DNA from: Phyllobates terribilis
Lineage: Eukaryota
DNA length: 64,000 nt
Assembly: GCF_046119375.1 (NCBI RefSeq)
Contig: NW_027362773.1
Span: 174,530,001-174,594,000 of the forward strand
Direction of reading: 5' to 3'
The position numbers and the translations under genes were made by a program. The notes under the pieces are model-generated. The model was not told the DNA's origin and did not search any database. It worked only from the letters and a program-made list of their open reading frames with translations. This document shows, one piece after another, positions 1-54,001 of this stretch (positions are counted from its first letter, which is position 1; every line of letters begins with the position of its first letter).

Positions 1-2
1 AC

Positions 3-19276: not shown

Positions 19277-19336
19277 CCTGGACAGGGCATCCGCGTTAGT
19301 ATTGGAGCGTCCTGCCCGGTATTTGATTGTGAACTA

Positions 19337-21598: not shown

Positions 21599-22554
21599 GA
21601 ACAGTACCTTTCCATATGTCCGGATTGATTGCAGCGGCGGCAGATGGGTCGTCCGTCCTCGCTGTATCGGTCACTGGGTCTTCCTCTGGCCGGTGGGGTC
21701 CTCCTTGGTCGACGCCACGGGATGTCCTCCGGTCCGGATGCCAGCTGGATCTTCCCTGGGGTGGAAACCTGTAAAGACTGCACAGTTCGGGTTAGCGCAG
21801 CAACGCTCTTAGCTAGCTCTTGGACCTGATGGTGTAGGTCTGGAGCCGGGTCATTGTCCAAAGCCTGCGCATCAGCTCCCACAGGCCCTGCTGACAAGGG
21901 CGCCGCCTCCTGGTAGTAAGTGGTAGTGGGGCGTCTGTGGGTCACAACGCCACCTGGTGCCGGTTCTCGGAGCACCCGGATGGCTCTGTCCTTGAACTGT
22001 GCAAAGTCCAGATGGGGATCCTGTAAGGCCATTGCCCGCAACTGGGTTCGGTGGGCATTGCAATATAAACCCTCTATAAATTGTTCAGTCAACAGCCTGT
22101 CCTCGTTTCCCACCCCATCAGGGTCGGTCTGCTTTATGGCCCTCAGGGCCTCTTGTAGGTTTAGTGCATAGTCCCTTATACTCTCATGCGCTCGCTGCTT
22201 GCACCCGTAGAATCTAAGCTTAATCTCGGCTGAGGTGCGGGTATCAAAGGTGTCCTTCAGCCGGGTTAGTATCCCTGCGACAGTCTTCCTCCCAGGTGGC
22301 CAGGATTTTACTTCCCTTTTGGCTGCCCCGGTTAGTTGGGCCACCAGGATGCTCACTTTTTGCTCTTCTGTGAGGGGGTACACCTGGAAGAGGCTATCCA
22401 GCTTTTCTCTAAAGTCATGCAGGGTATGTGACTCCCCTGAGTACTGGGGTAGCCAGGCTGCTCCCGGGATATAGGGCATGGTGAAGGGCATAACTGCAGC
22501 AGCGGTAGCGCTGGCGGGGGTTGGGGCAGTGAAGCTCTCCTCCGTATCCGACAT
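21574..22554 (-). CDS. gag: Gypsy Gag (326 aa)
   Basis: Capsid-like KQRAHESIRDYALNL and EQFIEGL; CCHC knuckle CRRCNQSGHMERYC; position between leader and pol. Confidence 0.93.
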   Translation of the reverse strand: MSDTEESFTAPTPASATAAAVMPFTMPYIPGAAWLPQYSGESHTLHDFREKLDSLFQVYPLTEEQKVSILVAQLTGAAKREVKSWPPGRKTVAGILTRLKDTFDTRTSAEIKLRFYGCKQRAHESIRDYALNLQEALRAIKQTDPDGVGNEDRLLTEQFIEGLYCNAHRTQLRAMALQDPHLDFAQFKDRAIRVLREPAPGGVVTHRRPTTTYYQEAAPLSAGPVGADAQALDNDPAPDLHHQVQELAKSVAALTRTVQSLQVSTPGKIQLASGPEDIPWRRPRRTPPARGRPSDRYSEDGRPICRRCNQSGHMERYCSLNGHNLG

Positions 22555-22995
22555 CTTCCTCCCCCCTAGTGGACCGTGGCCTACCTTGCGATGATCCTCT
22601 TCCGTAGGCCGCGGCTCCGCAGTGGATCGTCAGGGTTGAGGACCTTCCGTCGCGCTCCTGTGACGTCGGCGTCTGCTGGGCTCCTTCCAGGACCTTACGC
22701 AACGTCCGGACGTGAGGCGGGGCTTCAGTTCTCGCGCGCTTTCAGAGTCCACGCCCCTCTTCTTCCCGCGCGGCGTCCCCAAGATGGCGTCCAACGGCGG
22801 GAAAACTCCACGGATGGCGGGAAGAAGGCCGAAGATGGCGCCGGATGGCGGGAAACTTCACCGATGGCGGGAAGAAGGTAGAAGATGGCGCCGGATGGCG
22901 GGAAACCTCCACGGATAGCGGGAATCTTCACCACTGGTAAGTTTGAACAGTCTTTGCTTTTCAGGCACGCAGTACCCGGTGGTTGCGGGCACGAG

Positions 22996-23013
22996 ATCCT
23001 GCCGACTACGCCA
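22996..23013 (-). promoter_or_regulatory. Primer-binding site, tRNA-Ser (TGGCGTAGTCGGCAGGAT)
   Basis: 18-nt complement of the vertebrate tRNA-Ser 3' end as I recall it (...ATCCTGCCGACTACG-CCA), 4 nt from the LTR. Confidence 0.9.
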
Positions 23014-23017
23014 AAGT

Positions 23018-23980
23018 TGACGCGCCCCTGGGCCTGTGTCGCGCTGCGTTGCGCACGCGGGAGCTTACCCGGAGCCGGATCTCTTGAGGGTTGTAGTCTC
23101 GTGGCGGTGACCCGGTCCGTGCCCAGGGAGTCAAACTGGACGGCAGTAGATGTAGTACGACTACGCCACCCGTTGAATGCAGCTTATGGAGCTGCCGCTG
23201 CAGGACAGTCCGCTGAGGCCGGTGGATGGATGGTGCAGCGGGGATGGTATAACCCCCAACGGGAGGGGTATGGCCTCAGGGCAGCCGACGTGGATGATGG
23301 GGGTAGCAGGAACCACTCAGAGACGGTGCGGTGTAATTCAGGGTCTTTACTGGTAACAACGATAGACCCTCCCGGAGTACTTGCTAGCGAACGGGGCCTG
23401 GTCAGTCCTTGAGCAGATGGGATCTCCCCTGGCCAGGCGGAGTTGTAGGCCTCCCAAACTGACTGTACTCTTCTGGCTACCTTGCTAGAAGCGGATATAA
23501 GTAGCCCACGTCCCTGAGTGTACCGTGTGGTGCTCACCCGTATGGCCGGTGACTCGGGGCCTTCTAATGGCTTCCGCTCCACGATGGCGGTGCTGGTCCC
23601 ACGCGTGTGACCGTGCCTTCGGGCTTCTGGGCCAGAGGACCTGAAATCCCCTGCCTGACGGATTCTGCTGCTGGGTAGGAGTTAGTCCCCACAGCCTCGG
23701 ACTCCGGGTCCGGTAAAGAATCTTCTTAGTCAGGGCGAACTCTGCAGCTGCCAGCCCCTGATTCCTTGGAACTCTGCTGTTTCCTATGCTGTTTCTTGTC
23801 TCTACTCTCCTTGACTGACTAACCCTGCCTCAGCCCCGGGTTTATACAGGGGAAGTTCTTCCCCTCCCAAGACTGGGCAGGAGGTGTGGCATGCACAGGA
23901 TCCCTGACCAAAGGACCTCCCACCTGCTCTCAGACATAACATTACATTACTGTGGAAAACCAGACCCCTGGGGTGCCACA
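23018..23980 (-). repeat. Gypsy 5' LTR (963 bp)
   Basis: Identical to 16141-17103 except in one ~86-bp patch. Confidence 0.96.
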
Positions 23981-24941
23981 CATGGATTACAGACAGTAGA
24001 GCAGAGCTGCAGTATGAAGCGTGGATTACAGACAGTAGAGCAGACCTGCAGTGTAAAGCATGGATTACAGACAGTAGAGCACAGCTGCAGTATGAAGCGT
24101 GGATTACAGACAGTAGAGCAGAGCTGCAGTATGAAGCATGGATTACAGACAGTAGAGCAGAGCTGCAGTGTAAAGCATGAATTACAGACAGTAGAGCAGA
24201 GCTGCAGTATGAAGCGTGGATTACAGACAGTAGAGCAGAGCTGCAGTATGAAGCATGGATTACAGACAGTAGAGCAGACCTGCAGTATGAAGCGTGGATT
24301 ACAGACAGTAGAGCAGAGCTGCAGTATGAAGCATGGATTACAGACAGTAGAGCAGAGCTGCAGTATGAAGCATGGATTACAGACAGTAGAGCAGAGCTGC
24401 AGTATGAAGCATGGATTACAGACAGTAGAGCAGACCTGCAGTATGAAGCGTGGATTACAGACAGTAGAGCAGAGCTGCAGTATGAAGCGTGGATTACAGA
24501 CAGTAGAGCAGAGCTGCAGTGTAAAGCATGAATTACAGACAGTAGAGCAGAGCTGCAGTATGAAGCGTGGATTACAGACAGTAGAGCAGAGCTGCAGTAT
24601 GAAGCGTGGATTACAGACAGTAGAGCAGAGCTGCAGTATGAAGCATGGATTACAGACAGTAGAGCAGAGCTGCAGTATGAAGCATGGATTACAGACAGTA
24701 GAGCAGACCTGCAGTATGAAGCGTGGATTACAGACAGTAGAGCAGAGCTGCAGTGTAAAGCATGGATTACAGACAGTAGAGCAGAGCTGCAGTATGAAGC
24801 GTGGATTACAGACAGTAGAGCAGAGCTGCAGTGTAAAGCATGGATTACAGACAGTAGAGCACAGCTGCAGTATGAAGCGTGGATTACAGACAGTAGAGCA
24901 GAGCTGCAGTGTAAAGCATGAATTACAGACAGTAGAGCAGA
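23981..24941. repeat. 39-bp minisatellite, right part
   Basis: Same unit as 14128-16140, resuming in register after the TSD. Confidence 0.97.
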
Positions 24942-27251: not shown

Positions 27252-28615
27252 ATGGTGCAGGGGGGAACAGAGAATGCCGAGCCTTTGTTCGGATACATGA
27301 AAGCTGCAGAATGTGATTTGTTATGTGCCCCCAAAATGGCCGTTGCACCTTTGATGCCTGTCACTACACTGAGCCCTCAGTCACCACCCTATAATGGCGC
27401 CGACGCCAAATTACCGGAGGGGTGGACGTGTCGGGTGTGTGGAGAGCAAAACCCACTCTGGGCGGGCCGCCCATGGCACGATGCCCAGTCTGCCCCCAAG
27501 AATAATCCCACCCCCACTCCCACCCACTCCCACCTCCTCCCTCCAACGGCCATTTTGCTACACCTCTTACTTGTTGTGGGCGGCCCGGAAAGCCCCAATC
27601 CGGCCTATATCCACTACTAGATCCGTCCGGTGCATATTACCAGCCACCAGCACAGGTGGAAAAGCCCGCAGTCCCAGAGCACCCATCTGAAACTAATGTG
27701 ACACCCTCTGCTCCAGTCCACGATGCTGAGACGCTTCCCCTGTTTCCTATGGGAGTCACCCACAACCCTGGGGATATCCTCCTCAACCCCCCAGAATTTC
27801 AGGCCAGACTGCTCTCCCTCCGCCAACATACTGTTACTCAAGACGATATGGAGCCAGATGAGGGATGGGCTCAAGATACTCCAGCCCCCCCCCCCCGTCT
27901 TTACCCCATACGTCTCCTATGGCATCCTTCACCCCACATCCATTACCCGTACTCCGGCCCTTGCTCCAAGCAACTGCTGAAAGAGCCCCACCCCCCAGCC
28001 CCTCAGAAGTCTGGGACCCCTGCCGCTCCCGGAATCTAGTAGACCCATCAGGACGCCCTGTCACTCTGTCAATAGGCTATGGTGACATCCTTACACATCG
28101 GGTGGGGGCCATAGTCAACCCTGCAAACACCTGTATGAGCCATGTTGGAGGATTGGCTCGCAAAATTTCCCTTGCTGCTGGTTCTACTCTGGCTGCAGAA
28201 TGCCAGGCTCACTTAGCCGAAAACGGAGAGCTTTCAAAAGGCCATGGTTTCCACAAAAGCAGGATCTCTTAGTACGTATGAATCCGGCCTAGAATACATG
28301 AAACAGTTAAAGGCCTGGGCTCAGGATCGCTTGTCAGATCAAGCTGGGTCTGTACAAGATGTTCAACAAGACCCTGATGAATCTGTGGAAAGATATGCTG
28401 CAAAACTCAGCATGCATTTTGAGGATCTTGGATACAGTCCTCACGTCAAGACGCAGGCCGCCCTGTTGGTTCAGGCCCTGGTAAATGGCCTACAAGACGC
28501 CCTCAGAGATGAAGTCCTGAGAGTACGGCCCGAGATTCGTTCTTCTTCTTTCAACGACGCGGTGGATATCGTTAAAGCTTTCCATAAATCAATGCTAAAA
28601 ATGGAAAAGGATACT
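27252..28615 (+). pseudogene. gag: Frameshifted ERV gag remnant: Cys motif, Pro-rich region, macrodomain, capsid C-terminal part
   Basis: WTCRVCGEQN; GDILTHRVGAIVNPAN; MHR-like QQDPDESVERYAAKL and ALVNGL; spread over several frames. Confidence 0.75.
28060..28272 (+). pseudogene. Macrodomain (ADP-ribose-binding fold), N-terminal part, inside gag
   Basis: VTLSIGYGDILTHRVGAIVNPANTCMSHVGGLARKISLAAGSTLAAEC matches GDI...IVNAAN..L.HGGGVA.AI..AAG..L..EC; it continues after a frameshift as G-MVSTKAGSL. Confidence 0.85.
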
Positions 28616-31582
28616 AAGCCAAAGAAGAAAACCGCTCCGGGAGAGCCTCCAAGATACCGGTTGGTTCAGGATCTCAGAGCCGTCAATGCAGCTACCATTT
28701 TAGAAACTCCAGTGGTACCCAACCCAAACACCCTTTTGTCTCAGGTGCCTCCAACGGCCACCTTGTTTACGGTGTTAGATCTGGCCAACGCTTTCTTCAG
28801 TATACCCTTACATGAAGATTCGTGGTTTCTTTCTGCCTTCACCTTTCAAGGAGCACAGCTTACATGGACCAGGACTCCGCAAAGAGCCCAGAACTCTCCT
28901 AACCAATTCACTCATTCTATGAAGTCTATTCTGGAGCCATGGGTTCAAGAGAACCCTCAGGTCACCTTTCTACAGTATGTGGATGATCTTTTACTCTGTG
29001 GCACTGAAGAAAATTTGCCAGAGATGTCAGCATCCCTTCTCTGGTTTCTTCACTCAGCTAACTGTAAAGTCTCGAAAGGCAAAGTCCAATGGTGTCTGCC
29101 CAAGGTCATTTTCCTCGGACATTGTATATCACAAGGTGCTAGACATCTGACTGAAGAAAGAAAACAAGCCATCATGGATATCACCTTCCCAACCACCTAC
29201 TCCGCTATGCAGACTTTCCTTGGCCTCATCACTTACTGCAGGCAATGGATCCCTGATGCCTCAAACCTCATGCAACCTCTGTACGACTGTCTCAAGGATG
29301 AAGGCTCAGTTTGGCTTCATGCTGAAGATCCACGTGTTTCTCATCAACACAGACTATGTTTTGACCGCCTTAAACAGGCTGTTGTCTCTGCCCCGGCCTT
29401 GGGCTTACCAGACTATACTCAGCCATTTCACCTTTTTGTCTCGGAATCGGAAGGTCATGCCTCTGGAGTTCTAGCACAACGCTATGATCATAAGTATCGG
29501 CCTTTGGGCTACTACTCAGCCCGCCTGGACCCTGTCGCCCGAACTGCCCCCATGTGCCTTAAGGCGGTCCACGCTGCTCACATTCTCCTTGACAAGTCAG
29601 CTGATATCGTCCTTGGCCATGATCTCTCAGCTGTTCTGCAACAAACATCTCCGAAAGATCTCACCAACCAAAGACACCTGCGGCTGCAGTGTTCCCTATT
29701 GTTGCCCTCCAATATAACATTTACCAGATGTCTGACTATCAATCCTGCCACTTTGCTTCCACCTTCTAGGGGGGAAGGTGAAGAGGGTGAAGATCCATTG
29801 GTGGAACCTCATGATTGTATAAAAATTTTGCAGGAAGAGACTTCTGCTCCAGAGAATATGGTGGCACATCCGCTCGCAGACCCTCAAGGGAAGTTCCACA
29901 CGGGATATGCTGTCACAACGGACCTAACAGTCCTCAAGGCTGAAGCTCTACCACCATATATGTCTGCACAAGAGACTGAACTTGTGGCTCTCACAGAGGC
30001 CTGCCACCTGGCAGCAGGAACAAAGGCGAATATGTATATACCGATTCCAGGTATGGACATGGAATTTGCAATGATTCTGGACTCTTGTGGAAGTCTAGAG
30101 GATTCATCACAGCTGCAGGTACACCAGTGAAACATGTCTCATGGATTAAGGCCCTAATGAAGGCCCTGGAACTACCCATTCAGGTTGCTGTTATCAAGGT
30201 CAAGGCTCATGGAAGACTAGAATCCAGAGAAGCCAGGGGCAACCACCTAGCTGACCAAGCAGCCAAGACTGCAGCAGTGGAGAATGTGTCATCAAAGTGG
30301 CAGGAAAAGGAAGAAGAGATGGGAGAGACTCTGCAAACCGTAGCTGTGGCGCTCACTAGAGCAAGAGCCAAAGAACAGCCGGCGGAAGACCATACAAGTC
30401 CAGCGGAGACACGAGTGGAATCCAGGGGGGTCAGGATGCCTAAAGAAAAATTGTGTGAGGAACAAAGGAAGACCCCCACTGAAGAAGTCAAGCAATGGAA
30501 AGCGGCAGGAGCTGTGCTGGCAGGTCGCAAAGATTCAAAGGTCAACTCGACTCTTTACCAAGTGGATGGGAAGCCTTGCTTGCCTAGACGCATGTACTCA
30601 GCTGTGGCAGCATGGGCTCACGGGCCTACACACAGAGGAAAGAATCAAGCTTTGGCATGTATCAAGAAACTGTACTTTGCACCCAGAATCTCTTCCACTG
30701 TGACTGCATACTCAAAATCCTGCTCTGTCTGCGCTACCTGCAACCCAACGTGTATGGCACGGGTCCCTCTTCAACATCTGGCTAAACCAGACTACCCTTG
30801 GCAGAGAATACAAGTCGACCATATCCAAATGCCTAAAGCAGGAAAATAGGAGTACGTTTTGGTAGCCGTGGATATGTTCTCAGCCTGGCCCGAGGCCTAC
30901 CCGGTTGTCAACATGACTGCTAAAGTCACAGCCAAGAAACTGATCACCGAAATTGCCTGCAGATTTGGAGTTTCCCCAAGTCATAGAATCGGATCAAGGA
31001 CCAGCTTTCACAGCAAATATCTATGAAGAACTCTGGAACATGTTGGGAACAGATTTGGGCCTCCACACTCCATACCATCCTGCCAGTTCAGGCAAAGTGG
31101 AGAGAATGAATTCCACACTCAAGACCCAGCTCTTGAAAATGACCCAAGATCATCCCCTCCCCTGGCCCGACCTACTCCCCATAGTATTGTATCATATCAC
31201 ACACACTCCTCAGGCCAAACATGGGCTGACTCCCTATAAAATTTTGTTTGGGACCCCACCCAAGATAGGAGAGATTAGGCCCCAAGAGTTGTCTGAAACA
31301 CATGATAGAGTGGTAAAATTTGTGATTGTTTTGTCTAGAGAATTGACTAACACCCGCTCTCCAGTATCTGCTTCTCTCCCAGAATCTACAGGTGATGCAG
31401 TACATGATTTCATCCCAGGCGATCTAGTGTATGTGAAGAAGTTTGTCCGGAGAGACTGTCTCCAGCCGCGGTTCGAGGGACCGTACACTGTGCTTCTCAC
31501 CACCCCGACGGCTCTGAAGCTTGAGGGCAAGAGCACCTGGATTCACGCCTCCCACTGCACGAGAGACAGAACGAGTCTATAA
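28616..31582 (+). pseudogene. pol: ERV pol (RT lacking its N-terminus, RNase H, integrase) with frameshifts and one stop; no protease
   Basis: YRLVQDLR, LDLANAFF, YVDD, SAQETEL, HGPTH...[35 protein letters not shown]. Breaks near 30030, 30847 (TAG) and 30960. Confidence 0.92.
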
Positions 31583-38800: not shown

Positions 38801-40500
38801 TTACATCGGATTGGCTGATCCCGAAGATACAATGTTACATCTGATTGGCTGATCCCAAGGATACAATGTTACATCTGATTGGCCGATCCCAAAGATACAA
38901 TGTTACATCTGATTGGCCGATCCCAAAGATACAATGTTACATCTGATTGGCCGATCCCAAAGATAGAATGTTACATCTGATTGGCTGATCCCAAAGATAC
39001 AATGTTACATCTGATTGGCTGATACCGAAGATACAATGTTACATCTGATTGGCCGATCCCAAAGATACAATGTTACATCTGATTGGCTGATCCCAAAGAT
39101 ACAATGTTACATCTGATTGGCTGATCCCAAAGATACAATGTTACATCTGATTGGCCGATCCCAAATATACAATGTTACATCTGATTGGCTGATCCCAAAG
39201 ATACAATGTTACATCTGATTTGCCGATACCAAAGATACAATGTTACATCTGATTGGCTGATACTAAAGATACAATGTTACATCTGATTGGCTGATACTGA
39301 AGATACAATGTTACATCTGATTGGCTGATACTGAAGGTACAATGTTACATCTGATTGGCTGATACTGAAGATACAATGTTACATCTGATTGGCTGATACT
39401 GAAGATACAATGTTACATCTGATTGGCTGATACTGAAGGTACAATGTTACATCTGATTGGCTGATACTGAAGATACAATGTTACATCTGATTGGCTGATA
39501 CTGAAGGTACAATGTTACATCTGATTGGCTGATACCGAAGGTACAATGCTACATCTGATTGGCTGATACCAAAGATACAATGTTACATCTGATTGGCTGA
39601 TACCAAAGATACAATGTTACATCTGATTGGCTGATACCGAAGGTACAATGTTACATCTGATTGGCTGATACTGAAGGTACAATGTTACATCTGATTGGCT
39701 GATACTAAAGATACAATGTTACATCTGATTGGCTGATACCGAAGGTACAATGTTACATCTGATTGGCTGATACCAAAGATACAATGTTACATCTGATTGG
39801 CTGATACCGAAGATACAATGTTACATCTGATTGGCTGATACTGAAGATCCAATGTTACATTTGATTGGCTGATACTGAAGATACAATGTTACATCTGATT
39901 GGCTGATACCGAAGGTACAATGTTACATCTGATTGGCTGATACCAAAGATACAATGTTACATCTGATTGGCTGATACCAAAGATACAATGTTACATCTGA
40001 TTGGCTGATACCAAAGATACAATGTTACATCTGATTGGCTGATACCGAAGGTACAATGTTACATCTGATTGGCTGATCCCAAAGATACAATGTTACATCT
40101 GATTGGCTGATACCGAAGGTACAATGTTACATCTGATTGGCTGATACCGAAGGTACAATGTTACATCTGATTGGCTGATACCGAAGGTACAATGTTACAT
40201 CTGATTGGCTGATACCAAAGATACAATGTTACATCTGATTGGCTGATACCGAAGGTACAATGTTACATCTGATTGGCTGATCCCAAAGATACAATGTTAC
40301 ATCTGATTGGCTGATACCGAAGGTACAATGTTACATCTGATTGGCTGATACCGAAGGTACAATGTTACATCTGATTGGCTGATGCCAAAGATACAATGTT
40401 ACATCTGATTGGCTGATACCGAAGATACAATGTTACATCTGATTGGCTGATACCGAAGATACAATGTTACATCTGATTGGCTGATACTGAAGCTACAATG
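38801..40500. repeat. 34-bp minisatellite, about 50 copies (catctgattggctgataccaaagatacaatgtta)
   Basis: Period 34 (gatacaatg at 38826 and 38860); nearly every unit has a CCAAT box on the minus strand. Confidence 0.97.
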
Positions 40501-41574
40501 TTCTTGTATTAATACTGGGTGATGACTGTTACATTAGGTTCTGGTAGGGGTGTAGCTATGGGAGTGCAGAGGTAGAAGTCCGAATCCTAGTGCCTGAAAG
40601 AGACTGTCTGCAACACAAGAAGACCCCTGTGTAATACATGGCACATGTTAGGTGGGGACCTTAGAACAAGGAATTGAGGCTTTATTTCATGAATCAGGTG
40701 GCTCAGGATGGGCATCACTGTAGGCTCTTTCTGGAAGGTGAAGGCTCAATGTGAGGACTTGTTATAGGCTGTAGACCACCTGCAGTGACTATCAATAATC
40801 CGCTCTCTCCCTGTAGTCAGTGCGGTCACCCGCTATACTGCAGGAGCGCTGGGGCCACCTAACATTCATGAGATGAACTTGAATATTTCTCTTATTTTGT
40901 TCTGCAGGAATCATTAATAGAAACCAAAGCTCTTTTTTTGTTACAAATTCTCTGACAAATTTAACATTACATTTGTGGCATTATAAAAATAATGAACTGA
41001 TGGGAGTGAGTGGCTCCACCTAGTGGAGGCTCAGAGACCGGCTGCCCTGCTGGACACGGCCGAGTCTTACAGAGGTTTTATCACAGGACTGAATCCGGAC
41101 TGCACACGAGAAGAAACAGCGGAGGGGACGGCGGACGGACCCCAACTCCCTGCACGGCGGCTCCGCGCCATAGTGCAAACCTGGGAGGAAAGCTCCGCCT
41201 GCGCCCATCATTGTATCTGCAGCAATCACATGGAAATCCAACCTCCCCTCTACCTAATATCCGGCCCCTCGCCCCCCCGGTGTATAACATCCACCAGCGC
41301 GGTCCTGTCACCGGAGCCACCGGGGAACAAGTCCGTCCACGGGATTTCTCCTCCTGGATCTTCCCCCATCACCTGTGATATTACTGAGAAGTGGATGAAA
41401 CCGCCGCAACATAGCCACGAAGTGGAGACCCCGTAATGTTACAGAGCGGGGGGCCGAGTGCTGAGGAGCAGAGGGCAGAAAAGTCCCCACCACTCTGCTG
41501 ACCCCATAACTGCAGAGTACAGACCTCCTCTGGTATAAACACTGCGCCCCCACCAGGAGATTCATAGCCGAGCA

Positions 41575-41801
41575 GCTGCATGAGGACAGAGAAGCCCCCG
41601 GAAGTGGATGTGGGGGGCACATACTTTTCTCTATATTAATGTCTATGGATCTAGATGAGGACAGAAAAGCCCCTGGAGGTGGATGTGGGGGGCACATACT
41701 TTTCTCTATATTAATGTCTATGGATGTAGATGAGGACAGAGAAACCCCTGGAGGTGGATGTGGGGGGCACATACTTTCCTCCATATTAATGTCTATGTAT
41801 G
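41575..41801. repeat. 75-bp minisatellite, left part (about 3 units)
   Basis: Same unit as 46693-50116; interrupted by the CSD element. Confidence 0.9.
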
Positions 41802-43022
41802 TGTAGCACCCTGAGGATTCGGCTGCTACAGGGGTGTTGCACCTCAACCCAGAGGTGTGGTATTCCACTCCCGGGTAAGGATGGAGTGTGGAACTGAGCT
41901 CGGTAGGCTGCATGCACTACACACATCCCATTTCCGAGGAACAGACCAACGGTACTCCCACTTAGAAATGTGCAGGTACGACCGAGTCTGTTCCTGGCTG
42001 GAGTGGGAGGGGGGTGGAACATCCCAAGTAGTGTAGGGGCAGATAGGGGGAGCAGCCTGGGTAAAGATAGGAGCTCATTGGGTGCTGGTCACCTGAGCTC
42101 ACACATAGAGGGAGTATATAAGGTGGGCACCATCAAAGAACAGGGTCAGTCAGTCAGCCACAGTCAGTCAGTCTGTGAGTCTTTGCAGAGAAGTCAGAGG
42201 AAGAGCAGAGCAGAGAAGCCTGAGCCAGAGTGAGAGAGGAGAAAGCAAGAAAGACCCAGAGGGGGAAACAGAAAAGGAACTCTGAGAACCCAAAGTCCAT
42301 CAGCGGGTGAAGAGTTGGCATCAGGGTACCGGAACCCAAGCTGGTGGGGGCAAAAACACACCCCAGCCAGAGACCGGAGGCCGTGGGCAGCGTTTGCCGC
42401 GGCCACCCACCACATCCACCACGAAGGCATACCACGTGGAGGGTCAGGGAACCCAAGGCCAAGGGTCTCCCAACAGAAGGCCCGAGGGAGCTGGACCTGG
42501 GTGGATCAATAGTGGGGACGGCCAGTGAAAGGACAGAAGGAGAGCTCAGGGTCACGCTCCGGACTCGCTTGGGGGTTGGCTGGATCCAGGACCTGGTGGA
42601 TGCAGCACGGCTCGGGAGGTCACTTGAAGCTGGAGTGACCGGAACATCAGCAGTGAGTAAATACCCTTAACTGCATAACCCGACTCTGTCTTCCTTTAAC
42701 ATCTATGCTGCACCACCACAACCCCCATCCTCTGCACCTGACCCCCTGAGGCTATACCCCACCCGTTGGGGGTTATACCATCAATAGCTGCACCAACACC
42801 ATCAGCCTCAGCGGACCCTGCTGCAGCGGCGGCCATAGTGACCGCAATACAACGGGTGGCGTAGTCGACATTAAGAACTAAATAACATCTGTAGGACTGC
42901 CACATACAACTGAGTTTGACACCCTGGGCACGGACCGGGTCATAGCCACTCGGAGACTACAACCCCCATCTGATCCGGCTCCGGATATTCCCCCTAAAGA
43001 ATATGGCCCAGGGGGCGCGTCA
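41802..43022 (+). repeat. 5' LTR of CSD element copy 2 (1221 bp)
   Basis: tgtagcacc...gggggcgcgtca; about 10 differences from the 3' LTR. Confidence 0.95.
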
Positions 43023-43026
43023 ACTT

Positions 43027-43044
43027 TGGCGTAGTCGGCAGGAT
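43027..43044 (+). promoter_or_regulatory. Primer-binding site, tRNA-Ser (TGGCGTAGTCGGCAGGAT)
   Basis: Identical to the Gypsy PBS, including the 4-nt actt spacer. Confidence 0.9.
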
Positions 43045-43234
43045 CTCGTGCCCGCAACCACCGGGTACTGCGTGCCTGAAAAGCAAAGACTGTTCAAACT
43101 TACCAGTGGTGAAGGTTTCCCGCCATCCGGCGCCATCTTCTACCTTATTCCCGCCATCTGCAGAGTTTCCCGCCACTGGGAAGCGGTTCCCGCCATTTCC
43201 AAAGGTTTCCCGCCTTGGAAGAGCGGACGCCATT

Positions 43235-45010
43235 ATGGGCGTGCCAGAGGGTGGTGAGAGGCCACCTCCCATCGTGGGCCAGGACCGAAAATGGCGCCAA
43301 AAGTGGAAACCGCCCCCACCAACAGAGACTGTGATGCTAGAGGTGTCTGTCAGCGTGAAAGAACCGCCCCTGGAGCTGACAATCACCAAGTGGCCCCGGG
43401 ACCGCCCTCGAGGTGGGAGGAGACGAAAGGAGAGAACAAAGATGGGTGCCGCCTGGAGCAGTCTAGAGCGAGCGCACCCGGAGGCAAGAAGCCTGGAGAA
43501 GAATATCGGAGGAGCTTACCCGGAGATGGCGAGAAAGCAGAGCAGCACCGGCCCGCTGGCCAGGAGCCTGCTGGAGACGACTGTAGGAGAGCAGAGCAGC
43601 ACCGACCCGTTGGTCAGGAGCCTGCTGGAAACAACGACCCCACTAGGCCTAGTGGAGGTCCTAGCACAGCTCCCCCGAGACCGGGAGTGTGCACAGACCG
43701 CTCTGGAGGGCCTCGCAAGGAGGATGGCCCGGGTGCAGCGAGAGATGTTGGCGGAGTGGAGCCGTGAGATGGCCCAGCAGACCGAGACCTGTGAGCGGAG
43801 CACGCCACCCGAGACGAGGAGACAGACCGCCTCTGAGGATGGCGCGGGAGGACTGAAGGCCGGAGACGGCGCCGAGAAGGGAGCCGAACGAGTGGAGGCA
43901 GGTAAAGGGGACGTCTATACCCCAGACCGGGAAACCGCGTACCTGCCCCAGCTCCCCGTCGCAGAGCCCGAAGTCTATCCTGCCGTGCCCGTCGCTGCAA
44001 CGTCACCGCCGCAGACTAGGCCTCAAACGGGAGCCGCGACCCCTGTGACGTCACACGCCTCGACCCCGAGCGTGACCAAGCAGGAAGTACCACCAGCCTG
44101 GTCGCAAGGCCTAGTACCCCCGGGCGCCGCAATACCAACAGCGCCCCCTACCTCCGCGGAGCCCCCGGCCTGGTCGCAGGGCCAAGTAGCCCAGGGCGCC
44201 GCCGTCCTTACGGTGCCCTTTACCTTCCAGATACCCCAGGCCTGGCCGCAAGGCCCGGGCAACCCGGGCGCCACCACCACCGCGCCCATAAGACCAAGAG
44301 TGCCGCATCTGGGAGAGGACCTGTACGCCCAACATACGTGCCCGGATGGGCAGCCATTTATATGGCCACCGGAGTTCCACCATCCCCGACTCCGGAGAGA
44401 GAGACCCCTGGATGAACCCCTGATCCCGGCTCCAAAGCCCGTAAAGAGGATCTCGCCCCCGCTAGCGGAAGCACAGTTTGAGTGGGACCCCACCGGAGAA
44501 GATCTTATGGGGTTCACTCAAGAGACTCGGGCAGCTGCAGCGGAGCGTGCTGAGTGCTGCCGCCAACAGCTCGAGGACTTCGAGAGGGAGCGGAGAGAGA
44601 GGCGGGTCCGGGAACAGCTAGCTCAAGTAAAGAGCGCGGAGCAGAAGAGCCGGGCCAGGAGAGACCCCCGTGCAGCGCATAGTCCCCGCACCACCGGGAC
44701 TGTGATAAAGTTTAACCTGCAGCATGGGTGGGGCTTCATCCGAGACCACCACACCCTAGGCGACGTCTTTGTGACCAGAAGAGACGTTGAGTCCCACCTG
44801 CCGGAGGGACACAGAGGTCGTGACCTTTACATCGGGGACGAGGTCACCTTCACCCGGCACAAGTGTGCCAAAGGTCCCTACGCCCTCCATGTGCATCGCC
44901 TGACGGAGGAAGAGCTGCGGTGTGAGGAGGAAGAACAAGAGGACCCGGACGGGTCTGAAATTAGAGCCAAAGGTAACCAAAAAGCAAGAGCAGGAGGACG
45001 CCGTCGCTAA
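43235..45010 (+). CDS. 591-aa protein (from the first ATG) with Pro/Ala/Thr-rich middle, predicted coiled coil and C-terminal cold-shock domain
   Basis: Uninterrupted frame. GTVIKFNLQHGWGFIRDHHTLGDVFVTRRDV...LYIGDEVTF...KGPYALHV (44696-44902) matches CSD RNP1 (GFGFI) and RNP2 (DVFVH) with Y-box-like spacing. Start uncertain: ATG 43235 or 43442, both in good Kozak context. Confidence 0.82.
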   Translation: MGVPEGGERPPPIVGQDRKWRQKWKPPPPTETVMLEVSVSVKEPPLELTITKWPRDRPRGGRRRKERTKMGAAWSSLERAHPEARSLEKNIGGAYPEMARKQSSTGPLARSLLETTVGEQSSTDPLVRSLLETTTPLGLVEVLAQLPRDRECAQTALEGLARRMARVQREMLAEWSREMAQQTETCERSTPPETRRQTASEDGAGGLKAGDGAEKGAERVEAGKGDVYTPDRETAYLPQLPVAEPEVYPAVPVAATSPPQTRPQTGAATPVTSHASTPSVTKQEVPPAWSQGLVPPGAAIPTAPPTSAEPPAWSQGQVAQGAAVLTVPFTFQIPQAWPQGPGNPGATTTAPIRPRVPHLGEDLYAQHTCPDGQPFIWPPEFHHPRLRRERPLDEPLIPAPKPVKRISPPLAEAQFEWDPTGEDLMGFTQETRAAAAERAECCRQQLEDFERERRERRVREQLAQVKSAEQKSRARRDPRAAHSPRTTGTVIKFNLQHGWGFIRDHHTLGDVFVTRRDVESHLPEGHRGRDLYIGDEVTFTRHKCAKGPYALHVHRLTEEELRCEEEEQEDPDGSEIRAKGNQKARAGGRRR

Positions 45011-45470
45011 GGACAGCGAAGCAGAAGCTGTATATAGTTGCCCGTCGGGGCACCGTAAACTGAAATCGTGAACTGAAACTGAAACTGTTGCTGTTGCTAA
45101 TATAGTCCCCGTTGGGACCAGCATGTGTGAACTGTTTACCCGTATTTCCCTTAATTCCCACTGACCGAGGACTGAGAGCGGTCATTCCTCCCTAATACCT
45201 GGCCGAGGACTGAGAGCGGCCATATCCTTGTATATAGTTGCGCATCCTAAAGCGCCCCCTACCGGTTTTATAGGAAAACCAGTTTTCCAGAAAGACTGTC
45301 GCACTTTACCCGGTCACACGTTGCACAGTGACCGGAGGAGGAGCCAGAGGCGACGAGAATGTTTTATATATATATAATGTTTTATATGTTTTATATGTTA
45401 TGCAAAAATTTGTATGTTTTGGTGTTATGTCTTACAGCCCGAGGACGTGCTGTGATTTACCAGGGGGGAA

Positions 45471-46692
45471 TGTAGCACCCTGAGGATTCGGCTGCTACAG
45501 GGGTATTGCACCTCAACCCAGAGGTGTGATATTCCACTCCCGGGTAAGGATGGAGTGTGGAACTGAGCTCGGTAGGCTGCATGCACTACACACATCCCAT
45601 TTCCGAGGAGCAGACCGACGGTACTCCCACTTAGAAATGTGCAGGTACGACCGAGTCTGTTCCTGGCTGGAGTGGGAGGGGGGTGGTACATCCCAAGTAC
45701 TGTAGGGGCAGATAGGGGGAGCAGCCTGGGTAAAGATAGGAGCTCATTGGGTGCTGGTCACCTGAGCTCACACATAGAGGGTGTATATAAGGTGGGCACC
45801 ATCAAAGAACAGGGTCAGTCAGTCAGCCACAGTCAGTCAGTCTGTGAGTCTTTGCAGAGAAGTCAGAGGAAGAGCAGAGCAGAGAAGCCTGAGCCAGAGT
45901 GAGAGAGGAGAAAGCAAGAAAGACCCAGAGGGGGAAACAGAAAAGGAACTCTGAGAACCCAAAGTCCATCAGCGGGTGAAGAGTTGGCATCAGGGTACCG
46001 GAACCCAAGCTGGTGGGGGCAAAAACACACCCCAGCCAGAGACCGGAGGCCGTGGGCAGCGTTTGCCGCGGCCACCCACCACATCCACCACGAAGGCATA
46101 CCACGTGGAGGGTCAGGGAACCCAAGGCCAAGGGTCTCCCAACAGAAGGCCCGAGGGAGCTGGACCTGGGTGGATCAATAGTGGGGACGGCCAGTGAAAG
46201 GACAGAAGGAGAGCTCAGGGTCACGCTCCGGACTCGCTTGGGGGTTGGCTGGATCCAGGACCTGGTGGATGCAGCACGGCTCGGGAGGTCACTTGAAGCT
46301 GGAGTGACCGGAACATCAGCAGTGAGTAAATACCCTTAACTGCATAACCCGACTCTGTCTTCCTTTAACATCTATGCTGCACCACCACAACCCCCATCCT
46401 CTGCACCTGACCCCCTGAGGCTATACCCCACCCGTTGGGGGTTATACCATCAATAGCTGCACCAACACCATCAGCCTCAGCGGACCCTGCTGCAGCGGCG
46501 GCCATAGTGACCGCAATACAACGGGTGGCGTAGTCGACATTAAGAACTTAATAACATCTGTAGGACTGCCACATACAACTGAGTTTGACACCCTGGGCAC
46601 GGACCGGGTCACAGCCACTCGGAAGACTACAACCCCCATCTGATCCGGCTCCGGATATTCCCCCTAAAGAATATGGCCCAGGGGGCGCGTCA
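45471..46692 (+). repeat. 3' LTR of CSD element copy 2 (1222 bp)
   Basis: Direct repeat of 41802-43022, preceded by aggggggaa. Confidence 0.95.
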
Positions 46693-49600
46693 TATGTAGT
46701 TGAGGACAGAGAAGCCCCTGGAGGTGGATGTGGGGGGCACATACTTTCCTCCATATTAATGTCTATGTATGTAGTTGAGGACAGAGAAGCCCCCGGAAGT
46801 GGATGTGGGGGCACATACTTTTCTCCATATTAATGTCTATGGATGTAGATGAGGACAGAGAAGCCCCCGGAGGTGGATGTGGGGGGCACATACTTTTATC
46901 CATATTAATGTCTATGGATGTAGATGAGGACAGAGAAGCCTCCGGAAGTGGATGTGGGGGGCACATACTTTCCTCCATATTAATGTCTGTGGATGGAGGA
47001 CAGAGAAGCCTCCCAGAGGTGCATGTGGGGGGCACATACTTTCCTCCATATTAATGTCTATGGATGTAGATGAGGACAGAGAAGCCCCCGGAGGTGGATG
47101 TGGGGGGCACATACTTTCCTCCATATTAATGTTTATGGATGTAGATGAGGACAGAGAAGCCCCCGGAGGTGGATGTGGGGGGCACATACTTTTCTCTATA
47201 TTAATGTCTATGGATGTAGTTGAGGAAAGAGAAGCCCCCGGAGGTGGATGTGGGGGGCACATACTTTTCTCTATATTAATGTCTATGGATGTAGTTGAGG
47301 AAAGAGAAGCCCCTGGAGGTGGATGTGGGGGGCACATACTTTTCTCCATATTAATGTCTATAGATGTAGATGAGGACAGAGAAGCCCCCGGAGGTGGATG
47401 TGGGGGGCACATACTTTCTCCATATTAATGTCTATGGATGTAGATGACGACAGAGAAGCCCCCGGAGGTGGATGTGGGGGCACATACTTTTCTCCATATT
47501 AATGTCTATGGCTGTAGATGAGGACAGAGAAGCCCCTGGAGGTGGATGTGGGGGGCACATACTTTCCTCCATATTAATGTCTATGGATGTAGATGAGGAC
47601 AGAGAAGCCCCCGGAGGTGGATGTGGGGGGCACATACTTTTCTCCATATTAATGTCTATGGATGTAGATGAGGACAGAGAAGCCCCCGGAGGTGGATGTG
47701 GGGGGCACATACTTTTCTCCATATTAATGTCTATGGATGTAGATGAGGACAGAGAAGCCCCCGGAGGTGGATGTGGGGGCACATACTTTTCTCTATATTA
47801 ATGTCTATGGATCTAGATGAGGAAAGAGAAGCCCCCGGAGGTGGATGTGGGGGGCACATACTTTTCTCCATATTAATGTGTATGGATGTAGATGAGGACA
47901 GAGAAGCCCCTGGAGGTGGATGTGGGGGGCACATACTTTCCTCCATATTAATGTCTATGGATGTAGATGAGGACAGAGAAGCCCCCGGAGGTAGATGTGG
48001 GGGGCACATACTTTTCTCCATATTAATGTCTATGGATGTAGATGAGGACAGAGAAGCCCCTGGAGGTGGATGTGGGGGGCACATACTTTTCTCCATATTA
48101 ATGTCTATGGATGTAGATGAGGACAGAGAATCCCCTAGAGGTGGATGTGGGGGGCACATACTTTTCTCTATATTAATGTCTATGGATCTAGATGAGGACA
48201 GAGAAGCCCCTGGAGGTGGATGTGGGGGGCACATACTTTTCTCTATATTAATGTCTATGGATCTAGATGAGGACAGAGAAGCCCCTGGAGGTGCATGTGG
48301 GGGGCACATACTTTTCTCTATATTAATGTCTATGGATGTAGATGAGGACAGAGAAGCCCCCGGAGGTGGATGTGGGGGGCACATACTTTCCTCCATATTA
48401 ATGTCTATGGATGTAGATGAGGACAGAGAAGCCCCCGGAGGTGGATGTGGGGGGCACATACTTTTCTCTATATTAATGTCTATGGATCTAGATGAGGACA
48501 GAGAAGCCCCTGGAGGTGGATGTGGGGGGCACATACTTTTCTCTATATTAATGTCTATGGATCTAGATGAGGACAGAAAAGCCCCTGGAGGTGGATGTGG
48601 GGGGCACATACTTTTCTCTATATTAATGTCTATGGATCTAGATGAGGACAGAAAAGCCCCTGGAGGTGGATGTGGGGGGCACATACTTTCTCCATATTAA
48701 TGTCTATGGATGTAGGTGAGGACAGAGAAGCCCCCGGAGGTGGATGTGGGGGGCACATACTTTCCTCCATATTAATGTCTATGGATGTAGATGAGGACAG
48801 AGAAGCCCCCGGAGGTGGATGTGGGGGGCACATACTTTCCTCCACATTAATGTCTATGGATGTAGATGAGGACAGAGAAGCCCCCAGAGGTGCATGTGGG
48901 GGGCACATACTTTCCTCCATATTAATGTCTATGGATGTAGATGAGGACAGAGAAGCCCCCGGAGGTGGATGTGGGGGGCACATACTTTTCTCTATATTAA
49001 TGTCTATGGATCTAGATGAGGACAGAAAAGCCCCTGGAGGTGGATGTGGGGGGCACATACTTTTCTCTATATTAATGTCTATGGATCTAGATGAGGACAG
49101 AAAAGCCCCTGGAGGTGGATGTGGGGGGCACATACTTTCTCCATATTAATGTCTATGGATGTAGGTGAGGACAGAGAAGCCCCCGGAGGTGGATGTGGGG
49201 GGCACATACTTTCCTCCATATTAATGTCTATGGATGTAGATGAGGACAGAGAAGCCCCCGGAGGTGGATGTGGGGGGCACATACTTTTCTCTATATTAAT
49301 GTCTATGGATCTAGATGAGGACAGAGAAGCCCCTGGAGATGGATGTGGGGGGCACATACTTTTCTCTATATTAATGTCTATGGATCTAGATGAGGACAGA
49401 AAAGCCCCTGGAGGTGGATGTGGGGGGCACATACTTTCTCCATATTAATGTCTATGGATGTAGGTGAGGACAGAGAAGCCCCCGGAGGTGGATGTGGGGG
49501 GCACATACTTTCCTCCATATTAATGTCTATGGATGTAGATGAGGACAGAGAAGCCCCCGGAGGTGGATGTGGGGGGCACATACTTTCCTCCACATTAATG

Positions 49601-50116
49601 TCTATGGATGTAGATGAGGACAGAGAAGCCCCTGGAGGTGGATGTGGGGGGCACATACTTTCCTCCACATTAATGTCTATGGATGTAGATGAGGACAGAG
49701 AAGCCCCCAGAGGTGCATGTGGGGGGCACATACTTTCCTCCATATTAATGTCTATGGATGTAGATGAGGACAGAGAAGCCCCCGGAGGTGGATGTGGGGG
49801 GCACATACTTTTCTCTATATTAATGTCTATGGATCTAGATGAGGACAGAAAAGCCCCTGGAGGTGGATGTGGGGGGCACATACTTTTCTCTATATTAATG
49901 TCTATGGATGTAGATGAGGACAGAGAAACCCCTGGAGGTGGATGTGGGGGGCACATACTTTCCTCCATATTAATGTCTATGGATGTATATGAGGACAGAG
50001 AAGCCCCTGGAGGTGGATGTGGGGGGCACATACTTTTCTCTATATTAATGTCTATGCATGTACATGAGGACAGAGAAGCCCCTGGAGGTGGATGTGGGGG
50101 GCACATACTTTCTCCA
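46693..50116. repeat. 75-bp minisatellite, about 46 copies (gtagatgaggacagagaagcccccggaggtggatgtggggggcacatacttttctccatattaatgtctatggat)
   Basis: 25-residue periodicity in the ORF track; occasional 74-bp units. Confidence 0.97.
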
Positions 50117-53100
50117 TACAGAATAATGGCCCCCATATAACGCTCCATACAGAATACTGGCCCCCACATAATGCCCTGTGCAGGATGTCACCCCCCATAT
50201 AATGCCCCTTGCAAGATGTCACCCCCCTTATAATGCCCTATGCTGGATGTCATCCCCCCATATAATGCCCCATGAAGGATGTCACCTCTCCCCCCCATAT
50301 AATGCCCCATGCAGGATGACACCTCTCCCCCCATATAATGCCCCATGCAGGATGTCACCCCCCCATATTATGCCCCATGCAGGATGTCACCCCCCATATA
50401 ATGCCCCATGCAGGATGTAACCTCTCCCCCCATATAATGCCCCATGCAGGATGTCACCCCCCCCATATATTGCCCCATGCAGGATGTCACCCCCCCATAT
50501 ATTGCCTCATGCAGGATGTTATCCCCCCATATAATGCCCCATGAAGGATGTCACCTCTCCCCCCCATATAATGCCCCATGCAGGATGACACCTCTCCCCC
50601 CATATAATGCCCCATGCAGGATGTCACCCCCCCATATTATGCCCCATGCAGGATGTCACCCCCCATATAATGCCCCATGCAGGATGTAACCTCTCCCCCC
50701 ATATAATGCCCCATGGAGGATGTCACCCCCCCCATATATTGCCACATGCAGGATGTCATCCCCCCATATTAAGCCCCATGTAGGATGTCATCCCCCCATA
50801 TAATGCCTCATGCAGGATGTCACCTCTCCCGCCCATATAATGCCCCATGCAGGATGTCACCTCTCCCCCATATAAAGCCCCATGCAGGATGTCACCCCCC
50901 ATATAATGCCCCATGCAGAATGTCAAGTCTCCCCCCATATAATGCCCCATGCAGGATGTCAACTCTCCCCCTATGTAATGCCCAATGCAGGATGTCACTC
51001 CCCCAATATAATGCCCCATGCAGGATGTCATCCCCCCATATAATGCCCCATGCAGGATGTCACCTCTCCCCCCATATAATGCCCCATGCAGGATGTCACC
51101 TCACCCCCCATATAATGCCCCATGCAGGATGTCACCCCTCCCCCCCATATAATGCCCCATGCAGGATGTCACCCCACCCCATATAATGCCCCATGCAGGA
51201 TGTCACCTCTCCCCCCATAAAATGCCCCATGCAGGATGTCACCTCTCCCCCCATATAATGCCCCATGCAGGATGTCACCTCTCCCCCCATATAATGCCCG
51301 ATGCAGGATGTCACCTCCCCCCCATATAATGCCGCATGCAGGATGTCACCTCTCCACCCATATAATGCCCCATGCAGGATGTCATCCCCCCATATAATGC
51401 CCCATGCAGGATGTCACCTCTCCCCCCCATATAATGCCCCATGCAGGATGTCACCTCTCCCCCCCATATAATGCCCCATGCAGGATGTCACTGCCCCCCC
51501 ATATAATGCCCCATGCAGGATGTCACCTCCCCCCATATAATGCCCCATGCAGGATGTCACCTCCCCCCCATACGATGCCCCATGCAGGATGTCACCTCTC
51601 CCCCCATATAATGCCCCAAGCAGGATGTCACCTCCACCCCCATATAATGCCCCATGCAGGATGACACCTCTCTCCCCCATATAATGCCGCATGCAGGATG
51701 TCACCTCCACCCCCATATAATGTCCCATGCAGGATGTCACCTCTCTCCCCCATATAATGCACTATGCAGGATGTCACCTCTCCCCCAATATAATGCCCCA
51801 TGCAGGATGTCATACCCCCATATAATGCCCCATGCATGATGTCACCCCCCATATAATGCCCCATGCAGGATGTCACCCCCCCATATAATGCCCCATGCAG
51901 GATGTCACCTCTCCCACCATATAATGCCCCATGCAGGATGTCACCCCACCCATATAATGCCCCATGCAGGATGTCACCCCCCCCCCATATAATGCCCCAT
52001 GCAGGATGTCTCCTCTCCCCCCATATAATGCCCCATGCAGGATGTCACCTCTCCCCCCATATAATGCCCCATGCAGGATGTCACCTCTCCCCCCATATAA
52101 TGACCCATGCAGGATGTCATCCCCCATATAATGCCCCATGCAGGATGTCACCCCCCCATATAATGCCCCATGCAGGGTGTCACCCCCCCATATAATGCCC
52201 CATGCAGGATGTCACCCCCCCATATAATGTCCCATGCAGGATGTCACCTCTCCCCCATATAATGCACCATCCAGGATGTCACCTCTCCCCCCATATAATG
52301 CCCCATGCAGGATGTCACCTCTCCCCTCCATATAATGCCCCATGCAGGATGTCACCCCCATATAATGCTCCAAGCAGGATGTCACCCCCCATATAATGCT
52401 CCAAGCAGGATGTCTCCCCCCATATAATGCCCCATGCAGGATGTCACCTCTCCCCCCATATAATGCCCCATGCAGGATGTCACCTCCCCCCCATATAATG
52501 CCCCATGCAGGATGTCACCTCTCCCCCCATATAATGCCCCATTCAGGATGTCACCTCTCCCCCTATATAATGCCCCATGCAGGATGTCACTCCCCCCATA
52601 TAATGCCCCATGCAAGATGTCATCCCCCCATATTATGCCCCATGCAGGATGTCATCCCCCCCATATAATGTCCCATGCAGGATGTCACCTCTCCCCCCAT
52701 ATAATGCCCCATGCAGGATGTCACCTCTCCTGCATATAATGCCCCATGCAGGATGTCACCCCCCCATATAATGCCCCATGCAGGATGTCACCACTCCCCC
52801 CCATATAATGCCCCATGCAGGATGTCACCTCTTCCCCCACATAATGCCCCATGCAGGATGTCACCTCTCCCCCCATATAATGCCCCATGAAGGATGTCAC
52901 CTCTCCCCCCATATAATGCCCCATGCAGGATGTCATCCCCCCATATTATGCCCCATGCAGGATGTCACCTCTCCCCCCATATAATGCCCTAATGCAGGAT
53001 GTCACCTCTCCCCCCATATAATGCCCCATGCAGGATGTCACTCCCCCCATATAATGCCCCATGCAGGATGTCATCCCCCCATATTATGCCCCATGCAGGA

Positions 53101-54001
53101 TGTCATCCCCCCATATAATGCCCCATGCAGGATCTCACCTCTCCCCCCATATAATGCCCCATGCAGGATGTCACCTCTCTCCCCCATATAATGCCCCATG
53201 CAGGATGTCACCTCTCCCTCCCATATAATGCCCCATGCAGGATGTCACCTCCCCCCCATATAATGCCCCATGCAGGATGTCACCTCTCCCCCATATAATG
53301 CCCCATGCAGGATGTCACCTCCCCCCCATATAATGCCCCATGCAGTATGTCACCTCTCTCCCCCATATAATGCCCCATGCAGGATGTCACGCACCCCATA
53401 AAATACCCCATGCAGGATGTCACCCCCCCATGTAATGCCCCATGCAGGATGTCACCCCCCCATATAATGCCCCATGCAGGATGTCACCTCTTCCCCCATA
53501 TAATGCCCCATGCAGGATGTCACCTCTCTCCCCCATATAATGCCCCATGCAAGATGTCACCTCTCCCTCCCATATAATGCCCCATGCAGGATGTCACCTC
53601 TCCCCCCATATAATGCCCCATGCATGATGTCACCTCTCCCCCCATATAATGCCTCATGCAGGATGTCACCTCTTCCCCCATATAATGCCCCATGCAGGAT
53701 TTCACCCCCCATATAATACGCCATGCAGGATGTCACCTCTCCCCCATATAATGCCCCATGCAGGATGTCATCCCCCCATATAATGCCCCATGCAGGATGT
53801 CACCTCTCCCCCCATATAATGCCCCATGCAGGATGTCACCCCCCAATATAATGCCCCCTGCAGGATGTCACCCCCCCATATAATGCCCCATGCAGGATGT
53901 CACCCCCCCCATATAATGCCCCATGCAGGATGTCACCTCTCTCCCCCCATATAATTCCCCATGCAGGATGTCACCTCCCCCCCCATATAATGCCCCATGC
54001 C
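50117..54001. repeat. Variable-length (~31-38 bp) minisatellite (ccccatataatgccccatgcaggatgtcacc[tctcc])
   Basis: Read directly; unit length varies with the C-runs and an optional tctcc. Confidence 0.95.

Follow-up and report, generated by a model that had tools for sequence, protein, structure and literature searches.

A cold-shock-fold protein under selection is the sole gene of an abundant, apparently undescribed LTR retrotransposon family of poison frogs

Non-autonomous retrotransposons normally shed their coding capacity or keep only Gag. The helper-dependent MaLR, bhikhari and TRIM/LARD elements retain long terminal repeats (LTRs), a primer-binding site (PBS) and a polypurine tract (PPT) and encode Gag-derived open reading frames (ORFs) or nothing, while in helper-dependent transducing retroviruses and the maize element Bs1 captured cellular sequence replaces the replication genes and mobilisation occurs in trans. 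Here we describe an LTR element at positions 41802 to 46692 of a 64,000-nucleotide stretch of the Phyllobates terribilis genome (contig NW_027362773.1, positions 174,530,001 to 174,594,000; hereafter the window). It represents a real, abundant, helper-dependent and apparently undescribed family whose sole gene encodes a cold-shock-fold protein maintained by selection. In contrast to the MaLR, bhikhari, TRIM and LARD elements, its ORF is unrelated to the Gag of its likely helper; unlike the transducing retroviruses and Bs1, the family is without env, is amplified in the germline and has maintained its ORF across frog genera.

Two described systems come closer. The cold-shock domain (CSD; Pfam PF00313) occurs inside LTR elements of birds, where 46 endogenous retroviruses (ERVs) carry it following several captures proposed to be adaptive; the carriers are ERV-A/B and ERV-G retroviruses, as classified by reverse transcriptase (RT) (PMC12287698). 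The frog family differs from these in that the CSD protein is its only ORF, it is linked to Gypsy elements, it numbers about 25,000 copies and purifying selection upon it has been measured. In Xenopus laevis, the LTR elements 1a11 and xretpos likewise show no pol homology, hold a single ORF and are expressed in the early embryo; 1a11 is described as Gag-like and xretpos as primed by an Arg-tRNA, and copies number tens to hundreds (PMC4585706). The term "cold shock" does not appear in that paper, and its passages on these elements, the Discussion included, name no helper. Hence CSD capture by LTR elements and pol-less single-ORF elements of amphibians are both already known, and the RNA-escort mechanism proposed below is what we infer in addition. 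The present family was not found in the literature searched, which excluded Dfam, Repbase, papers without open access and the supplements of PMC12287698, and "cold shock" is also absent from the main text of the poison-frog and anuran genome papers PMC6278860, PMC12208295 and PMC12822217. A preliminary description of the locus, which knew of no described vertebrate LTR family of this kind, lacked the published bird captures.

The element lies on the plus strand in an array of 75-bp satellite repeats and is bounded by TATG target-site duplications (TSDs) at 41798 to 41801, within the satellite, and 46693 to 46696. Its 5′ LTR of 1221 bp (41802 to 43022) and 3′ LTR of 1222 bp (45471 to 46692), with ends TGT...TCA, are 99.2% identical, being nine substitutions and one indel apart. 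The 5′ LTR contains the sequence TATATAA at 42115, and the sole poly(A)-like hexamer found, AGTAAA, lies at 46325 in the 3′ LTR. An 18-nt PBS (43027 to 43044), which we take to match tRNA-Ser, lies in a leader (43023 to 43234) with five TTCCCGCC repeats that is likely a packaging or regulatory region. The TTCCCGCC and CGCCAT motifs, presumably E2F- and YY1-like sites, recur at window positions 43110 to 43300. From PBS to PPT (AGGGGGGAA, 45462 to 45470) the interior measures 2448 bp and contains a single ATG-initiated ORF of 591 aa (43235 to 45010), whose frame stays open for 79 codons 5′ of the ATG. With paired TG...CA LTRs, PBS, PPT and TSD, and with no RT, integrase (IN) or protease (PR), this is a non-autonomous LTR retrotransposon. 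The preliminary description had given the same anatomy, namely 1.2-kb LTRs about 99% identical, the TATG duplication, PBS, PPT and a 2.4-kb interior with one intact 591-aa ORF, and was accurate throughout. A copy of the first 11 nt of the PBS also occurs some 165 nt inside the LTR end (42857 to 42867) and at the same place in the 3′ LTR; the helper LTR retains it, and it is possibly a second tRNA contact.

The encoded protein (P0001; overall dN/dS about 0.3) is predicted to be mostly disordered. A full-length model (mean pLDDT 48) is disordered outside the CSD and two long helices, the first at residues 150 to 188 (43682 to 43798) with heptad-like hydrophobic spacing and the second, which is charged, at residues 432 to 476 (44528 to 44662). 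A basic Arg/Lys patch at about residues 57 to 70 (43403 to 43444) may resemble a nuclear localisation signal or an arginine-rich motif, and a conserved W-D-x-x-G-x-x-L-M-G-F motif (44477 to 44524) is unstructured in the monomer model. AlphaFold models the C-terminal 154 aa (pLDDT 82) as one 45-residue helix and a five-strand barrel resembling the structures of CspA and YB-1 (Foldseek E 1.6e-6 to CspA). The CSD, of OB fold, occupies residues 487 to 554 (44693 to 44896) and matches PF00313 at E=1.1e-7 with 32.1 bits, the gathering cut-off being 27. It is the only Pfam family reported for the ORF at E<=1; when 24 family ORFs were scanned, all 24 matched CSD and none matched a Gag or Pol family. 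Profile-profile comparison (hhalign) of the ORF with the Gag of the partner element described below gave a probability of 0.3%, and no capsid in PDB was matched at E<=1. These results bear out the early identification of a C-terminal CSD and of an ORF devoid of capsid, CCHC, protease, RT and integrase motifs, and they reveal no cryptic Gag; the statement that the ORF ends in the CSD holds as to the domain being near the C terminus, with the amendment that a 33-aa acidic/basic tail follows it.

A 19-residue likeness between this tail and that of the helper integrase (E 0.09) was treated as chance. An overlapping +2 frame (MAPK...) was not accepted as a gene because its length varies and it is absent or short in several copies. 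Every ESM Atlas match to the protein fell below 0.9. Contigs of four sequencing runs, two of them guessed to be RNA, span all 30 bins plus the flanking satellite; since they include that satellite, they say nothing on transcription of the element.

Selection was assessed by pairwise Nei-Gojobori comparison of intact ORFs (12 sequences of subfamily A, 5 of C and 9 of B), broken copies being dropped. The CSD gave dN/dS values of 0.09, 0.17 and 0.06 in the three subfamily groups, where its dS was about 0.9-1.05. Values were 0.11-0.22 over residues 413 to 484 (conserved motif and helix 2) and 0.21-0.29 over residues 136 to 185 (helix 1); the Pro/Ala linker gave 0.48-0.63. Near the CSD dS was about 0.9-1.1; over codons 1 to 70 it was only 0.12-0.26, which suggests nucleotide-level constraint there. 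The CSD and both helices are under purifying selection, strong in the CSD, and the initial view of the ORF as functional is to that extent vindicated.

Exact matches to a ten-codon CSD motif numbered 24,684 in the genome, and those to the LTR-end/PBS junction 42,693; reversed-pattern controls gave 0 in both cases. At 4.9 kb per copy the former count corresponds, as a rough estimate, to 120 Mb or 1% of the 10.57-Gb assembly. The 150 matches that were scored with a 101-aa stretch of the CSD, which ranked highest among 37,648 candidates, were all 100% identical. Twenty copies were fetched, comprising 19 of these 150 matches and the neighbouring copy at the window start. All had the LTR-2.5 kb-LTR layout, and 19 possessed their own 4-bp TSD and 0-5 LTR substitutions, as the preliminary claim of a mobile, recently active family would have it; the remaining copy lies in a tandem array. 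Such tandem arrays, of the form LTR-interior-LTR-interior-LTR, are common in these families (e.g. G000:C3:166597 and 170278). Subfamily B shares the layout and is older, with 45-48% identity in the C-terminal region and LTR pairs mostly 93-98% identical, and the C and D types are further older subfamilies of this layout. Some B- and D-type copies (L107, L108, L112, L165 and L167) have a different PBS, TGGCGTCACGAACAGGAT, probably that of another tRNA-Ser isoacceptor.

In a search of 1.84 billion proteins the best 150 of 1,654 matches were listed, mostly multi-CSD proteins, and weaker relatives in other frogs could therefore be hidden. Among the matches listed, named relatives came from dendrobatoid frogs only (P. 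terribilis, Ranitomeya imitator, R. variabilis and Anomaloglossus baeobatrachus) and bore the NCBI/UniRef names "uncharacterized", "unnamed" or "CSD domain-containing". Family domains scored 83-138 bits versus at most 40 for the other CSDs retrieved, with the exception of a truncated family member at 39.7; two of three relatives scanned from other frogs scored just below the PF00313 cut-off. The occurrence of relatives in Ranitomeya and Anomaloglossus indicates that the ORF predates the splits of those genera. Public gene models P0003, P0004 and P0005 join family fragments to PF13359, PF13843 and PF02854 ORFs and are probably annotation artefacts.

As to its source, the preliminary description proposed capture of a Y-box-like domain. 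The CSD is real; a Y-box origin is not established, as CspA and YB-1 score alike (PDB profile bits: CspA 36.2, YB-1 34.5, YBX2 33.6, Lin28B 15.8, CARHSP1 12.9). The domain shares its fold with CspA and the Y-box proteins YBX1 and YBX2/FRGY2 (TM by target 0.77-0.90), its strand 3-4 loop is close in length to that of YB-1 and, as in Y-box proteins, a Pro/Ala-rich region precedes it and a charged tail follows. It differs from them in its identity of only 30-36% or so, in the replacement of Trp65, His87 and Lys64 (YB-1 numbering), in the two long upstream helices and in its long stem in the tree. In that tree (40 rows, 76 columns, without a host YBX row) the stem leading to the family is long and has weak support.

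When the genome was scanned with the Pfam CSD profile, the 150 matches scored included a retrocopy and exons of CSDE1 together with one Y-box-like remnant. The remnant (L146:1492-1701, minus strand) is decayed and intronless; it matched itself alone and fell out of the tree by score. The processed CSDE1 retrocopy at G000:C1:734.437-734.449 Mb (L126-L131, L157) is 95-100% like the exons at C2:702.79-702.81 Mb, with an L1-like interruption and partial duplication. Three local single-exon CSD ORFs of about 250 aa (L170:4427-5176, minus strand, L184 and L185; G000:C4:791.48-791.52 Mb) keep the RNP2 His, and neither LTRs nor a PBS was found around them; they could be a host gene or an old relative. 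As a donor this cluster was rejected, since it scored 42.5 bits, near generic CSDs, and fell outside the element clade. A 99-aa frame with a divergent CSD (L180:4747-5043, minus strand; Pfam 42.4 bits) adjoins a LINE reverse-transcriptase ORF.

A likely helper is present in the same window. The preliminary description overlooked a full-length gag-pol Gypsy element at 16141 to 23980 (minus strand; 963-bp LTRs with 9 substitutions; TSD CATG), whose gag frame lies at 21577 to 22629 and whose pol is broken by an in-frame stop near 19335. Forty loci carrying the junction were fetched as a non-random set: half were the first 20 that have the common spacer, and the other half were picked because their spacers differ from it. 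They comprised 20 CSD-family elements (one a mere fragment), 17 of gag-pol type, two chimeras and one unrelated sequence. The 20 consecutive loci among them gave 15 CSD-family, 4 gag-pol and 1 unrelated, with no chimera. No CSD was matched downstream of the junction in the 17 gag-pol-type elements. One of these (L057) matched zf-CCHC, RVT_1, RNase H and rve above the Pfam cut-off and PNMA, Retrotrans_gag and Asp protease below it. In the partner, a PNMA-like Gag containing a zinc knuckle thus precedes PR, RT, RH and IN in that order, and by domain content and order the element belongs to the Gypsy/Ty3 superfamily. A pol motif of the wider helper clade occurs 37,818 times in the genome. The CSD element and helper have in common the U5 end, the PBS, the leader with its five TTCCCGCC repeats and CGCCAT motifs, and a PPT of identical form; the U5 side of the 5′ LTR (the last 300 bp or so) is about 75% like the LTR end of the helper. 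From these shared parts, the Gypsy family is likely to be the helper that mobilises the CSD element.

Recombinants join the two partners. Two complete elements with helper LTRs (L044 and L052; G000:C1:9.10 Mb and 15.96 Mb) have a 1.35-kb interior in which the 5′ part of gag is joined to about 300 nt from the end of the CSD element, fusing a truncated gag to the acidic tail where the two partners share a short sequence. Copies of this junction number 2,055 in the genome, making the type a second non-autonomous family. The copy in the window is likewise mosaic. Helper-type sequence makes up the first 90 nt of its leader (100% identical to the window helper, 98.9% to a helper on another contig and 77-78% to its closest siblings), but in U5 and at the ORF start it is 96-98% like those siblings; its crossover sequence is found at a single place in the genome. 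These recombinants are most simply read as products of template switching in shared particles.

We consider the following account about evenly balanced between true and false: the family, non-autonomous as shown above, is likely copied by the Gypsy helper, and its protein likely binds its own RNA through the remodelled CSD, aiding survival or packaging of that RNA. Transcription in the germline would be driven by the LTR and followed by translation of the ORF. The new protein would then be bound preferentially to the RNA that encoded it, as is L1 ORF1p, with the helices providing oligomerisation or contact with a partner. Binding would raise the stability of the element RNA or its share of helper particles; helper Gag would package the RNA through the shared leader, and helper Pol would reverse-transcribe it from the tRNA primer and integrate the product, duplicating 4 bp at the target. 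The advantage conferred by the protein would be quantitative and not essential. A non-Gag protein under strong selection across subfamilies and frog genera must help the element to spread, and because that selection is long-lived in a helper-dependent family, benefit in cis would be its simplest explanation; were the product to act purely in trans, the cheaters that exist should have led to its erosion. High expression of Gypsy elements in Oophaga pumilio ova (PMC6278860) renders germline activity of the CSD family plausible, with the qualification that other elements are concerned there.

The YB-1 comparison, with residue equivalences taken from the alignment and 24 family ORFs compared, gives this account mixed support. 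The equivalents of Phe74 and Asp83 are retained in 24/24 ORFs and that of Phe85 in 23, the Lys118 position is basic (K/R) in 21, and Tyr549 and Arg516 are invariant. Several observations, however, weigh against the account. All 24 ORFs have K/R at Trp65, T/N at His87 and I/V at Lys64, so that of the YB-1 stacking quartet (Trp65, Phe74, Phe85, His87) together with Lys64 only the two Phe positions remain. According to a review, RNA binding by YB-1 is disrupted when any one of its four stacking residues is changed to Ala, and it also requires Lys64 (PMC7226217); the YB-1 binding mode is therefore not preserved, and the original suggestion of YB-1-like binding is weakened although the CSD itself stands. 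Selection means that the protein matters and says nothing on RNA binding, and the dN/dS values come from intact ORFs only, in non-independent pairs. Only 10 of 19 sampled CSD-type copies hold an intact ORF. The helper-type leader of the window copy reflects one event, which gene conversion could explain. Lastly, CSD-less derivatives multiply: besides the 2,055 chimeras, one CSD-deleting junction has 302 copies, which may have been amplified or may have arisen by repeated deletion between direct repeats. The ORF is thus dispensable in cis, and the case for a strict cis need for the protein is weakened. The broader proposal, that gag-pol was replaced by a captured, remodelled CSD protein used as an RNA escort or a germline anti-silencing factor, is held tentatively, at somewhat under even confidence.

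That CSD-less derivatives amplify would be expected of a trans-acting product, and such a product is the substance of the rival that survives best, although we judge it unlikely. The protein would be a family-specific anti-silencing or activating factor that enters the nucleus by its basic patch, binds the TTCCCGCC/CGCCAT leader motifs and de-silences or exports both element and helper, and the element would be a partly cooperative satellite of the helper. The basic patch is present in subfamilies A, B and C, the five motif repeats stand in both leaders, and the dS of 0.12-0.26 in codons 1 to 70 suggests constraint at the nucleotide level. There is a precedent in VANC of the VANDAL transposons, an anti-silencing accessory protein that is likewise transposon-encoded and works via tandem motifs in the element (PMC6719617); VANC, by contrast, is a different protein from a plant DNA transposon. 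Against such a factor, a free trans product should decay under cheaters, and the CSD dN/dS is 0.06-0.17 across deep subfamily splits.

The loss of three canonical RNA-contact residues in 24/24 ORFs could instead mean that the OB fold no longer binds nucleic acid and serves as a protein-interaction module, or as a decoy for helper Gag or for host Y-box or piRNA-pathway proteins; the conserved unstructured W-D...GF motif and the two helices do resemble interaction surfaces. We regard this as improbable: two stacking phenylalanines remain, the face has acquired basic and aromatic positions that do not vary, and the host CSDE1 domains found here are also without the tryptophan. A passenger ORF, open only because translation stabilises RNA or because a few master copies amplified recently, would accord with the many very young copies and with the broken or deleted ORFs in about half of those sampled. 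It is very unlikely, being largely refuted by the region-specific dN/dS: amino-acid conservation is focused on the CSD and helices, where synonymous sites are near saturation, and the domain persists in other frog genera. Scarcely credible is a hidden capsid that would make the element an ordinary gag-only derivative of the MaLR, bhikhari or 1A11 kind. In its favour, Xenopus offers pol-less single-ORF LTR elements including 1a11, described as Gag-like (PMC4585706), and the low-confidence N-terminal model leaves room for some fold; against it, the hhalign, Pfam and PDB comparisons above yielded no Gag or capsid, and the region is Pro/Ala-rich, indel-rich and predicted to be disordered.

Elsewhere in the window, another copy of the CSD family, 84% identical, is represented at positions 1 to 1891 (plus strand) by its 3′ part; as a whole (L021) this copy has an intact ORF and the TSD CTCA. 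Older LTR fragments of the family, 69-80% identical, lie at 11763 to 12731, and a distant gag-pol-like LTR remnant at 28217 to 31495, 27-28% like the helper pol, has a 637-aa frame. Satellite arrays occupy 1892 to 6707 (62 bp), 14128 to 16140 and 23981 to 24941 (both 39 bp), 38801 to 40502 (34 bp), 46694 to 50118 (75 bp) and 50191 to 54000 (36 bp). Of these, the 39-bp array surrounds the helper, and the 75-bp array is that of the CSD element.

Counter-defence factors encoded by transposons amounted to only three plant cases as of a 2019 review (PMC6719617), and the present family provides a testable candidate for such a factor in the vertebrate germline. It also provides a helper-satellite pair with visible recombinants. 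In a study of P. terribilis 62.6% of reads were unclassified (PMC12208295), and the family puts a name to one component of poison-frog repeats, which are largely unclassified. Should the protein prove to be an escort or an anti-silencing weapon, the element would out-compete or co-activate its Gypsy helper, more than 100 Mb of the giant poison-frog genome would derive from this family, and no earlier accessory factor of this sort would be known from an LTR element of vertebrates.

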